NCBI RefSeq assembly: GCF_057098645.1
Contig: NZ_CM169472.1
Length of the DNA stretch: 64,000 nt
Reading direction: 5' to 3' (one strand)
Made by a program: the position numbers. Below, one piece after another: positions 45,001 through 51,000 of the stretch. Position 1 is the stretch's first letter; each line of letters starts with the position of its first letter.

Positions 45001-48000
45001 TCAAGGGCATCCACCCCATCAGCCGCCAGTACCGTTGTCGCTCCCAATGAGGAAAACCACGAATCCAGAAGCGAGCGAAATACCTGCTCATCTTCAACAA
45101 TGAGAATCTGTTTTCCGACCAATGGCTGCGTCATGTTCTCTCCCCTGACTGGCTTTACTCAATAGTGGCATGCTATTGCCACCTGCGCCTGTCAGAATTA
45201 ACTTAAGTGTAGATAAAAATTCTGGTCAAATGTTGGTGCGTACCAACGGCAAAAGTTCGTCCATTTTCTTTTCCACTGCCAGCTGACCGGCCGCAATGGC
45301 AGCGTGCGCGCGATGGAAATCAAGCGTAGATATTTGCGGGCAAACAGGTTGAATCAGAATATCGGGCGGATCACCTGCCATGCGGTTCCTTTTAAGGCGG
45401 TTCTCCAGCACCTGGATAGAAGTGGTCATAATCTCTGTTGCCGTTGGTGCTGTCACCGCCCGACGTGTCGTTATGCTGCCTAACCTTTCTTTCAGACGCG
45501 CATGCCACGGCAGAGAATCACCATTCTCGCTATTTTCTTCACTGACATTAAAGGAGAGCAAATCTTGTTGCATCAAATGAGCATCGTGCTGCAGGTCGAC
45601 CGCTATCACAATATCAGCACCCAATGCACGCGTGAGTGAAATAGGAATTGGGTTAACGACTGCCCCATCAACCAGCCAGTAGCCGTTATGCGCAACGGGT
45701 GCCATGAGTCCTGGAATACTGCATGATGCGCGAATAGCAAGATGGAGATCGCCTTCAGTAAACCATAATTCACGCCCAGTACTTAAATTGGTGGCAACAG
45801 CCGCGAAGCGACGGGAACAATTTTCGATCTCTGTTTCCGGCATTATTTCGCGGTATTGATTGAAGACACGCTCGCCGCGCAGTAACCCACCGCGCTGCCA
45901 GGAGAGATCCATCAGGCGTAAAACATCCCAATAACTGAAAGAGGTTACCCAATCTTCCAGCGCAGATAATCGATCGCATGCATAGGCAGCGCCCACCAGC
46001 GAACCAATTGAACATCCTGCAACGATATCAATTTCAATACCCACTTTTTTTAGCGCATTAATAACGCCAATATGCGACCAACCTCTCGCCGCGCCAGATC
46101 CCAGCGCCAGCCCTATTTTTATCTTTCTCATTATTCCCGCAAGATTCCCCTGGAATGCAATCGTAGCCACATCGCTACTGCTCGGTTAACATAGTGCTAC
46201 TCAGGCGGTTAATACGCCGTTATTGTTTCCAGGGAGATTATTTGTGTCTCAGCTTTGTCCCTGTGGTAGTGCTGTCGAGTATAGCCTATGTTGCCACCCT
46301 TATGTGTCTGGTGAAAAGGTTGCACCTGATCCAGAACATCTCATGCGTTCGCGTTACTGCGCTTTTGTGATGCAAGACGCAGATTATTTAATAAAGACCT
46401 GGCATCCATCTTGTGGAGCAGCGGCGTTACGTGCCGAATTGATTGCCGGATTTGCGCATACTGAATGGTTGGGATTGACCGTATTTGAACATTGTTGGCA
46501 GGACGCCGACAATATCGGATTTGTCAGTTTTGTTGCTCGATTTGCCGAAGGTGGCAAAACAGGTGCAATAATTGAACGTTCGCGATTTTTGAAAGAAAAC
46601 GGTCAATGGTACTATATTGACGGTACACGTCCGCAGTTTGGCCGCAACGATCCCTGCCCTTGTGGTTCAGGTAAAAAATTTAAAAAGTGCTGCGGCCAAT
46701 AATGGTTGACGGTACGGTTTAGCAAACACTCTCAACAAGGTTTTTCCAGCAATGCATTCACTCCAACGTAAAGTTCTGCGTACTATTTGTCCGGACCAAA
46801 AAGGTCTGATCGCACGTATTACCAATATTTGCTACAAGCACGAGTTAAATATCGTACAGAACAATGAATTTGTTGATCACCGTACCGGGCGCTTTTTTAT
46901 GCGCACGGAACTGGAAGGGATTTTTAATGATTCCACCCTGCTGGCGGATCTCTATAGCGCATTGCCAGAAGGCTCCGTGCGTGAGCTGAATCCTGCCGGT
47001 CGTCGCCGGATAGTGATTCTGGTCACTAAAGAAGCGCATTGCCTTGGCGATTTGTTGATGAAAGCCAATTATGGCGGCCTGGATGTCGAAATCGCGGCAG
47101 TGATTGGTAACCACGATACTTTACGTTCTCTGGTTGAGCGTTTTGATATACCGTTTGAGCTGGTAAGCCATGAAGGGTTAAGCCGCAACGAGCACGATCA
47201 AAAGATGGCGGATGCCATTGATGCTTATCAACCTGACTACGTGGTGCTGGCGAAGTATATGCGGGTATTAACACCGGAATTTGTGTCACGCTTCCCGAAT
47301 AAGATCATCAATATTCACCATTCCTTCCTGCCAGCGTTTATCGGCGCACGTCCTTATCACCAGGCCTATGAACGTGGCGTGAAGATTATTGGCGCAACCG
47401 CTCACTATGTGAATGACAATCTGGACGAAGGCCCAATCATCATGCAGGACGTTATTCATGTCGATCATACCTACACAGCTGAAGATATGATGCGCGCAGG
47501 TCGTGACGTCGAGAAAAACGTCTTAAGTCGCGCGCTCTACAAAGTACTGGCGCAGCGCGTCTTTGTTTACGGTAATCGGACGATTATTCTTTAATCGCCA
47601 GCAAAAATAACTGGTTACCTTTAATCCGTTACGGATGAAAATTACGCAACCAGTTCATTTTTCTCAACGTAACACTTTACAGCGGCGCGTCATTTGATAT
47701 GATGCGCCCCGCTTCCCGATAAGGGAGCAGGCCAGTAAAAAGCATTACCCCGTGGTGGGGTTCCCGAGCGGCCAAAGGGAGCAGACTGTAAATCTGCCGT
47801 CATCGACTTCGAAGGTTCGAATCCTTCCCCCACCACCATCACTTTCAAAAGTACCTGAACTCTCAAGCGAATCCGTAAATAAATATTCTGCCCAAGCGGG
47901 GAAGGACGAGAAGCTTCGACCAAGGTTCGACTCGAGCGCCAGCGAGAGAGCGTTGCCGCAGGCAACGACCCAAAGGGCGAAGCGCGCAGCGCTGAGTAAT

Positions 48001-51000
48001 CCTTCCCCCACCACCATTTCTTCCTGAAATACTCAAAACCTGTTACTCCGAGCTAATTCTGCCCGATGGCACCGCGTTTACCGGACCTACAATATCCTCC
48101 CCTGTAGGTCGGATAAGCGAAGCGCATCCGACAACTCACCCCGCACCGTGCCCATAAAAAAACCCCGCCGAAGCAGGGTCTATGTGAACTAAAATTCGCT
48201 TAGTGACGAGCGCGCACCAGCTGGTACTTACGTGTCAGATACTCCACCGGTACGCTCCAGATGTGTACCAGACGCGAGAACGGGAACAGCAGGAATAACG
48301 TCATCCCCAGCACCAGGTGTAGACGGAAGATAAACGCCACACCATCAAGGTGTTGAGAAGCACCACCGTGGAAGGTCACTACCGACTGCGCCCAGCCAAC
48401 CAGTTTCATCATCTCGCTACCGTCCATATGCTGGGCGGAGAACGGAATGGTCAGCAGACCCAACGCGCACTGGATAACCAGCAGCGACAGGATCAGGATG
48501 TCCGCTCCGGTAGTCGTTGCACGCACGCGCGGGCTATACAGGCGGCGTTTGAGCAATAGCACGCCGCCAATCAGACACAGCACGCCGCTGGCACCACCAG
48601 CAAACATGGCCATTTTCTGTTTCACTTCAATCGGCAGCCAGGCTTCATACATCCAGTGCGGCGTCAGCATACCGAAGAAGTGACCGACAAAAATCCCCAG
48701 AATACCGATATGGAACAGATTCGACGCCAGGTTCATCCCTTTGCGATCCAGCATCTGGCTGGACGCCGCGCGCCAGGTGTACTGCCCGTAGTCATAACGC
48801 AGCCAGCTACCAATCAGGAAGACCGCCCCGGCTATATACGGGTAGATATCAAAGAAGAACATATTCAGGAATTGCATTAGTGCTGTCCTCCGGTGGTGAT
48901 ATTCAGATATTGCGGCGCAACGGCACCGGCAAAGCGACGCTGATGAGCAGTGATTGCTGAATCACCGCAGCCTTTGTCAGCAAAGAATTTAACCTGCTCT
49001 TCTTCCCAGACAGCATCCAGCGCCTGCGGCGTATCATCGCGCGCTTCGTCGGCAATTTTTTCCGCCACTTTGTCGCTGTCGATAGCGGTATTCGCCAGTT
49101 TCAGCAGCAGATCAAACAGCACGGCATAACGGCTTTCACGCTGTTGCAGACGCGCGCTCAGCAATGCCAGAATCGGCGCGATATCTTTCAAACCTTCCAC
49201 GGCTTCGCTTTGCGGCAGCTGCGCCAGGTACTCCAGATACAGCGGCAGATGGTCCGGCAATTCGCGGCTGTTTAACTGCAAGCCGTGCTGCTCGTACTGC
49301 GCCAGCAGGTCCACCATCGCCTGGCCGCGGTCGCGGGATTCGCCGTGCACATGTTCAAACAGCAACAGTGACGTGGCGCGGCCACGGTCGAACAGTTCGC
49401 TGTACTGCGCCTGGGCATCGAGCGGATCCATCGTCGTTAAATCGCGCAGGAAAATGCCCAGCGCATGGGCATCCTCTTTTGGCAGATTTTTCGACGCGGC
49501 AATCGCCTCAAACATCTCTTGTTGATGCTGCCATAAGGCAGCATCCGGATATTCAAGGAGACGCGATACAATCACGAGTTCGATCATGGGTGCGGCTCCG
49601 TTTTGCTGGTTACGTCGATGGCATCGATACGGCGGCTGTTGAACAGATTGAATTTGGTATCTGAACCGTGGCAGCCATCACCAAAGGTAAAGCCGCAGCC
49701 ATTTTTCTCCGGGAAGGCTTCCCGTGCCAGTTCACGATGACTACTCGGCACCACAAAGCGATCTTCGTAGTTAGCAATCGCCAGATAACGGTACATCTCC
49801 TGTGCCTGGGCTTCGGTCAGACCGACCTCTTCCAGCGCACGGGTATCAACTTTACCGTCAACGGTTTCAGCACGTTTGTAATGACGCATCGCCAGCATAC
49901 GTTTCAGCGCGCGCAGTACCGGTTTGGTATCACCGGCGGTCAGCAGATTCGCCAGATACTGTACCGGAATACGCAGGCTTTCGACGTCTGGCAGAATGCC
50001 GTTGCTACCCAGCTCACCCGCGTCTGCTGCAGACTGAATCGGAGACAGAGGCGGCACGTACCAGACCATCGGCAGTGTGCGATATTCTGGATGCAGCGGC
50101 AGCGCCAATTTCCATTCCATTGCCATTTTATAAACCGGCGACTGCTGTGCAGCTTCAATAACGCTCAGCGGAATACCGTCTTTAATCGCCTGCTCGATGA
50201 CTTTCGGATCGTTCGGATCGAGGAACACCTCCAGCTGACGCTGGTAAAGATCTTTCTCGTTCTCGGTGCTGGCTGCACGTTCAATAGCGTCGGCATCGTA
50301 CAACAGCACGCCGAGATAACGGATACGACCGACACAGGTTTCTGAGCACACGGTCGGCTGACCCGCTTCAATACGCGGATAGCAGAAGATGCACTTCTCA
50401 GACTTACCGCTCTTCCAGTTGAAGTAGATTTTTTTGTACGGGCATCCGGTGATGCACATACGCCAGCCACGGCATTTATCCTGGTCGATCAGGACGATGC
50501 CATCTTCTTCACGCTTGTAAATCGCACCGCTCGGGCAGGTCGCCACACATGCCGGGTTCAGGCAGTGTTCGCACAGGCGCGGCAAATACATCATGAAGGT
50601 GTTTTCGAACTGGCTATACATCGCCTTCTGGATGTTGTCGAAGTTCTTGTCTTTCGCCAGTTTGTCAAACTCACCGCCCAGGTCATCTTCCCAGTTCGGC
50701 CCTTTTTCGATTTTCGCCATCCGTTCCCCGGTAATCAGCGAACGCGGACGGGCAATCGGCTGCGATTTGCTGCCTTCCGGCGCGGTATGCAGGTTCTGAT
50801 AGTCAAAATCGAACGGCTCGTAATAATCGTCGATCCCCGGCAGATGCGGGTTAGCGAAGATTTTACCCAGCAGCATGGCACGGTTACCCATGCGCGGCTG
50901 CAGTTTGCCATTGATTTTACGGATCCAGCCGCCTTTGTATTTTTCCTGGTTTTCCCAGTCAGTCGGGAAGCCCTGGCCCGGCTTGGTTTCCACGTTGTTG

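Follow-up and report, generated by a model that had tools for sequence, protein, structure and literature searches.

The locus described here occupies the interval between purU and narI in a window of 64,000 nucleotides, i.e. the whole stretch of DNA that was analysed, originating from contig NZ_CM169472.1 of the NCBI RefSeq assembly GCF_057098645.1. All positions are counted from the first letter of this window. The locus carries one tRNA-Tyr gene followed by one tRNA-linked repeat (TLR) unit, and is recognized as the Escherichia coli tyrT operon by its site between purU and narI, by a promoter of the form TTTACA-16-TATGAT and by the G+C-rich discriminator that follows. The window is collinear, without gaps, with the purU-side loci of genomes C325 and 95-3192. 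In the RefSeq annotation of related genomes, such an arrangement is labeled 'tRNA-Tyr' and 'RtT sRNA, processed from tyrT transcript'. The individual features are collected in Table 1.

Table 1. Coordinates of the features of the tyrT locus in the window and the basis of each assignment.
Feature	Coordinates	Strand	Basis
purU (formyltetrahydrofolate deformylase), upstream flank	46752..47594	+	RefSeq annotation of collinear loci in C325 and 95-3192
tyrT promoter: -35 TTTACA, 16-nt spacer, -10 TATGAT (47698-47703), G+C-rich discriminator GCGCCCCGC	47676..47712	+	Consensus scan
Predicted 5' leader of the precursor, GCTTCCCGATAAGGG...ACCCCGT	47711..47753	+	Sequence read directly
tRNA-Tyr (anticodon GUA, long variable arm, encoded CCA)	47754..47838	+	ARAGORN, Rfam RF00005, string match to K-12
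Tail copy 1, 19 nt, AATCCTTCCCCCACCACCA, 3' end of the tRNA	47820..47838	+	Repeat search, string count
TLR unit, 178 bp, 3' trailer of the tyrT transcript	47839..48016	+	178-nt period; alignment with the distal K-12 units
RtT RNA (Rfam RF00391)	47885..48016	+	Full-length match to the family model
K-12 tpr frame ('protamine-like protein') without start codon	47891..47995	+	Translation of the window and K-12 frames
Tail copy 2, 19 nt, AATCCTTCCCCCACCACCA, closing the TLR unit	47998..48016	+	Repeat search, string count
Partial repeat, beginning of another unit, equivalent to the '.14' in the classical '3.14 repeats'	48017..48032	+	Repeat family D1
Intrinsic terminator of the convergent narGHJI operon	48160..48181	-	Terminator scan
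narI, convergent downstream flank	48200..48877	-	Open reading frame (ORF) list; annotation of collinear loci

The tRNA-Tyr gene, with a length of 85 nt and the anticodon gta (GTA), was called once by ARAGORN in the 64-kb window and received 53.4 bits from the Rfam tRNA model RF00005. It is identical to both tyrT and tyrV of K-12 by exact string match, including the variable arm GTCATCGACTTC and the encoded CCA, and its cloverleaf, displaying a long variable arm and a GUA anticodon, is of the tyrT/tyrV type (tRNA-Tyr-1). A preliminary description of this DNA, made from the sequence alone, had reported a single complete tRNA-Tyr gene at this place, a claim that both programs bear out, and had allowed for a second complete gene having been missed. 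No second tRNA-Tyr was found in the window by ARAGORN or by Rfam at a permissive E-value. A probe of 45 nt, derived from the tRNA's 5' half and allowed up to three mismatches, gave only one match in the same 64 kb, and a second copy was therefore not overlooked. Besides this gene, ARAGORN called only three tRNAs in the window, all of them in the prophage at about 7.5 kb.

The last 19 nt of the gene are found exactly twice in the 64 kb, the two copies being 19/19 identical with a start-to-start distance of 178 nt, and no such occurrence is expected according to 100 shuffles. The unit of about 178 bp ending in a copy of the tRNA 3' end, as first described, is accordingly present to the exact nucleotide. 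Most of this unit is covered by RtT, whose family model RF00391 is matched over positions 1-130 of 130 with 125.1 bits (gathering score 45; E = 6.6e-27). In RtT, GGGGAAGGA forms the closing helix with UCCUUCCCC of the tail, as given by the Rfam model and also by the minimum free energy and centroid predicted folds. The thermodynamic fold of the 178-bp unit is no better than that of shuffled sequence (z = -0.78), and the support for the RtT structure therefore comes from the family model and not from folding energy. Weak Rfam matches to STnc100 and tmRNA were dismissed, their scores falling far under the respective gathering scores.

Units of this kind were first described in 1978 and are known as 'tRNA-linked repeats', 22 of them being present in K-12 (PMC8144298). 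According to the same source, the TLRs of tRNA operons are without known function, and an early claim for a role in the stringent response or in recovering from starvation for amino acids was withdrawn. The unit of the window agrees with the TLRs (Egan and Landy 1978, Rudd 1999) and with RtT RF00391 in being placed directly 3' of a tRNA gene within the same operon, and in that its last 19 nt copy the tRNA 3' end, which is how PMC8144298 defines such repeats. Nothing structural differs; the difference is one of copy number only, with 1.1 units in the window against the 3.14 of the '3.14 repeats', a term used in the title under which PMC8144298 cites Egan and Landy (1978). The fractional unit corresponds to repeat family D1, in which 35 nt at 83% identity reach position 48032, about 16 nt past the second tail copy.

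The operon setting agrees with that of K-12. The promoter was returned by a sigma-70 consensus scan with 10/12 matches, and its sequence is that found upstream of tyrT in K-12; the tyrT promoter is known to be under stringent control. The transcription start and the removal of the 5' leader by RNase P are assumed to be those of the classical tRNA-Tyr precursor. No intrinsic terminator was found by scan on the + strand after RtT, which fits with the rho-dependent termination that we presume for the tyrT operon.

Comparison with the K-12 tyrT-tyrV operon (tyrT, tyrV, rttR/RtT and tpr) reveals the same purU-narI site, an identical promoter region, an identical 85-nt tRNA-Tyr and the same family of 178-bp units ending in the 19-nt tRNA tail. 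The copy numbers differ. In K-12 BW2952 a first tRNA-Tyr gene is followed by a divergent RtT unit and a 34-nt spacer, and an identical second gene by three RtT units, so that two tRNA genes lie 294 bp apart with the divergent unit between them and three units distal to them, whereas the window has one of each. The tandem tyrT and tyrV genes that the preliminary description gave for K-12 are indeed present, but that layout was incomplete. A second difference concerns tpr, which in K-12 is located inside the repeat unit and reads as a 'protamine-like' frame of 29 amino acids (MRGRMRSFDQ... from the upstream ATG). The frame itself is conserved in the window, but its start codons, present in K-12, are missing there, where ATG is changed to AAG at 47894-47896 and to ACG at 47906-47908. 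No ATG, GTG or TTG start exists in this frame in the window, and no ORF appears there in the ORF list. The frame is thus not maintained as a gene in the lineage of the window, and the replacement of both ATG codons suggests that tpr is not a conserved protein-coding gene.

K-12 is nevertheless not the relevant ancestor, and although the comparison proposed earlier was carried out, the nearest reference proved to be the O145:H28 group. Positions 36000-60000 of the window are about 100.0% identical to some 25 complete genomes of O145:H28 Shiga-toxin E. coli (STEC) among the matches listed, and the strain appears, judging from this backbone, to belong within or next to the O145:H28 STEC lineage. 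All of these matches span 24,120 bp, i.e. 119 bp more than the query, and carry two tRNA-Tyr genes, in the order tRNA, 34-nt spacer, second tRNA and one RtT. A comparison of 40 kb with O145:H28 95-3192 gives 9 substitutions, a gap of 1 nt (by BLAST) and a 119-bp indel; nine single-nucleotide polymorphisms (SNPs), six of them transitions, are private to the window in these 40 kb. A 1,051-bp alignment of the locus itself, which shows only one private SNP and one SNP of RM9872 when compared with O145:H28 RM9872, resolves the indel as a clean gap of one tRNA gene (85 bp) plus the 34-nt spacer, with both flanks intact. The surviving gene has the upstream flank of copy 1 and the downstream flank of copy 2 ('tcactttcaaaagtacc'). 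Exactly one repeat period is therefore missing with respect to the closest relatives, and the junction is otherwise unchanged. From the purU stop to the narI stop the single-copy allele measures 599 bp and the O145:H28 allele 718 bp. Since the backbone is O145:H28-like and those genomes have two tRNA genes and one RtT, a single 119-bp deletion is required, and not the collapse of a K-12 array.

The O145:H28 loci (RM9872, 95-3192 and RM13514, for instance) thus share with the window an essentially identical backbone over 40 kb, the same RtT unit and the same flanks, and differ in that an identical second tRNA-Tyr follows the first at a distance of 34 nt, a 119-bp period that the window lacks. 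Two copies separated by the same 34-nt spacer are also encountered in distant lineages (CFSAN064035, EC488 and the B2 strain Nissle among them), and the same 34 nt precede the second tRNA gene of K-12. Because this spacer is common to distant lineages, the two-copy state is most readily read as ancestral and the state of the window as derived. In addition, the window alone has a G-to-A substitution at 47972, inside RtT. This private change is absent from 9/9 compared genomes and lies, according to the Rfam consensus, in a helix with a flagged non-canonical pair.

The tyrT locus varies widely across E. coli, from 1 to 2 tRNA genes and from 0 to 7 RtT units, with occasional IS621 insertions. This variation was surveyed in a systematic sample of 60 genomes by means of flank-only probes, several of the resulting classes being checked by annotation. 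The flanks were joined in 48 genomes. The K-12-like arrangement with 4 RtT units and the arrangement of 2 tRNA and 1 RtT accounted for 12/48 joined loci each. Loci with about 2 and about 3 RtT units followed (9/48 and 7/48), then those with 5 (2/48) and 7 units (1/48), while the arrangements of 1 tRNA with 2 RtT and of 2 tRNA without RtT were each seen at 1/48. An IS621 insertion was present at 3/48. No locus of the size observed in the window occurred among the 48, in agreement with its rarity, in a sample too small to yield a frequency.

Single-tRNA alleles were searched for in 5,426 complete genomes with a 205-nt junction probe, composed of the leader, the tRNA and the distal-type 3' flank, which tells them apart from the other alleles, at a cut-off of at least 80% coverage. 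They were found in 196 genomes (3.6%) of several unrelated lineages, among them a set of O157:H7 strains, non-O157 STEC, the AS19 laboratory strain and isolates of baboon, chicken, deer and pig origin. In some of the non-O157 STEC and O157:H7 strains the allele seems to be fixed throughout a clade. The exact form of 1 tRNA and 1 RtT is known as a lower bound: at least 25 genomes among the matches listed look so, each with one piece and two places in the record, and six of these were checked by annotation. A 383-nt probe designed for this class was discarded as uninformative, since it returned 4,243 genomes at 80% coverage by joining overlapping pieces of two-copy genomes. The six retrieved single-copy loci fall into at least 3 distinct flank haplotypes, and the single-copy state has therefore arisen more than once. 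In EC488 the entire RtT unit is gone and the second tRNA lies directly against the terminal sequence, which shows that exchange can take place even through the 19-nt tail.

The locus of the window is best explained as the E. coli tyrT operon in a minimal allelic form, probably produced by a real 119-bp deletion between tandem repeats. The ancestral layout of the lineage would have comprised two identical tRNA-Tyr genes 119 bp apart (the 85-nt gene plus the 34-nt spacer) followed by one RtT. One 119-bp period would then have been lost either by unequal homologous recombination between sister chromosomes or by replication slippage between the identical 85-bp direct repeats; homologous exchange and replication slippage are both established sources of deletion between tandem repeats. 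The product would be a hybrid gene, flanked as copy 1 on the promoter side and as copy 2 on the RtT side. The recombination between repeats suggested in the preliminary description is supported by the loss of exactly one period, with slippage as the other possible route. A precedent would be the duplicate su3/tyrT gene, reportedly found by Russell and colleagues in 1970 to be lost by unequal recombination. That loss and the RecA-independent deletion between short tandem repeats resemble the present case in removing one member of a tandem pair of identical tRNA-Tyr genes while precisely keeping the flanks. The classical events are reported from laboratory transducing phages with the K-12 spacing, whereas the window holds a natural chromosomal allele with a 119-bp period.

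Expression of the shortened operon would proceed as follows. The tyrT promoter would direct a single transcript in which the 5' leader is followed by one tRNA-Tyr(GUA) and then by a single trailer unit of 178 nt. The leader would be cut off by RNase P and 3' processing would free the tRNA, as in K-12, while the trailer would give rise to the RtT RNA, whose 3' end, by copying the last 19 nt of the tRNA, may offer the same signal for 3'-end processing. The number of tRNA-Tyr genes in the genome would probably fall from three to two, tyrU being located elsewhere, at a modest physiological cost.

Several observations weigh against a deletion in the strain. The proposed mechanism leaves no distinguishing scar. 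The private SNPs are unusually many for the O145:H28 clonal group and could reflect either a divergent strain or sequence of lower quality. Moreover, C325 is the only other single-copy genome on an O145:H28-like backbone, and no SNP in the 40 kb groups the window with C325 against O145:H28. There is therefore no independent sign that the allele was inherited within a clade holding the window.

The most serious alternative, although an unlikely one, is an assembly artefact, in which the strain would possess two tandem tRNA-Tyr genes and the 119-bp tandem, 85 bp of which are identical, would have been collapsed by the assembler or polisher. This would account for the fact that all of the O145:H28 complete genomes listed are two-copy; a repeat as short as this could presumably give a loop in the assembly graph of short reads, and the number of private SNPs could have the same origin in sequence quality. 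However, the window passes unbroken through a 1.2-kb ISEc20, of which related genomes have 4-8 identical copies, and through a lambdoid prophage of about 20 kb, at which short-read assemblies usually break. This points to a long-read or finished assembly and therefore makes a collapse unlikely, long reads crossing 119 bp trivially. The allele is, in addition, biologically real elsewhere, single-copy alleles being known from 196 complete genomes, with groups of related strains among them.

Allelic replacement, whereby the single-copy locus would have been imported by homologous recombination from a one-copy donor instead of being deleted in place, appears improbable to us. Recombination is frequent in E. 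coli, potential donors amount to about 3.6% of the genomes, and C325 has the same allele on a near-identical backbone, but the flanks are devoid of donor-type SNPs, the 1,051 bp matching RM9872 apart from the two SNPs mentioned above, and all the other single-copy haplotypes examined differ at many flank sites. Replacement would fit only a donor nearly identical to the recipient, a case indistinguishable from deletion in place. The reverse polarity, with one copy as the original state and a second gained by duplication in the O145:H28 genomes, is most improbable, for while unequal exchange can duplicate as well as delete, the 34-nt spacer is shared by the two-copy loci of Nissle, CFSAN064035 and EC488 and by K-12, and its independent re-creation is implausible.

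With a deletion between the tandem repeats as the preferred reading, the locus of the window is an ordinary, already known copy-number polymorphism of a textbook locus, represented by an allele that is rare, at a few per cent of genomes. The low novelty attributed to it at the outset was justified, since single-tRNA alleles, identical ones among them, are already annotated in RefSeq. The result confirms tyrT as a hot spot at which copy number changes in natural E. coli, a variability that follows from its repeat structure, and the finding of a minimal allele on an O145:H28 backbone otherwise matters little, apart from the caution advisable in annotation and in typing based on tRNA gene counts. 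Two broader ideas may be raised, both of which draw only on the observed recurrence and variety of the alleles. It is conceivable, though we would give it very little credence, that tyrT is a fast-switching dosage locus in which, by way of the identical tRNA copies and the 19-nt tails, the copy number of tRNA-Tyr and RtT is raised or lowered time and again under selection, the single copy of the window being then adaptive and not neutral; such selection might be exerted by translational demand or by anticodon nucleases targeting tRNA-Tyr. As a speculation along related lines, the TLR units, each bounded by a copy of a tRNA 3' end, might be relics of integration at a tRNA gene.

Other elements were noted in the purU-narI interval. 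A palindromic element resembling the repetitive extragenic palindromic family (REP-like) lies between RtT and narI at 48075-48135, with an inverted repeat at 48075-48119; strain 23CRST011 has an extra 46-bp palindromic unit inserted at the equivalent of 48102. The IS621 (IS110-like) insertions belong to H68, H75 and H78, i.e. 3/60 sampled genomes, and IS621 is known for targeting repeat sequences. About 12/60 sampled genomes have their purU and narI flanks separated, as in Nissle 1917 (phylogroup B2), where a 7-kb cluster of seven genes of lipid type is located between the RtT tail and narI (20592-27473 of the Nissle locus sequence). Its order is acyl-CoA desaturase, sterol desaturase, PAP2 phosphatase, F390-synthetase-like protein, MBL hydrolase, epimerase and KAS III, and no integrase is annotated within the cluster.

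The lambdoid prophage adjoins ompW and extends over approximately 3468-23000 of the window, with genes for an integrase, an excisionase, dicB, cro/cI-like regulators, the antiterminator Q, hokD and the paa adhesin. Its identity to the prophage of O145:H28 95-3192 is 99.8%. Positions 1-3467 of the window are unlike the head genes of that strain, and the prophage is therefore mosaic. The ISEc20 copy (IS110 family) lies inside the prophage at 6185-7381 and is identical to the 4-8 copies per genome of the O145:H28 strains. The three prophage tRNA genes called by ARAGORN, Arg(tct), Lys(ttt) and Met(cat), are located on the - strand at 7496-7736. At the equivalent place in 95-3192, the PGAP annotation has tRNA-Arg and tRNA-Ile only; the 'Lys' call in the middle could represent either a pseudo-tRNA or a gene overlooked by PGAP.

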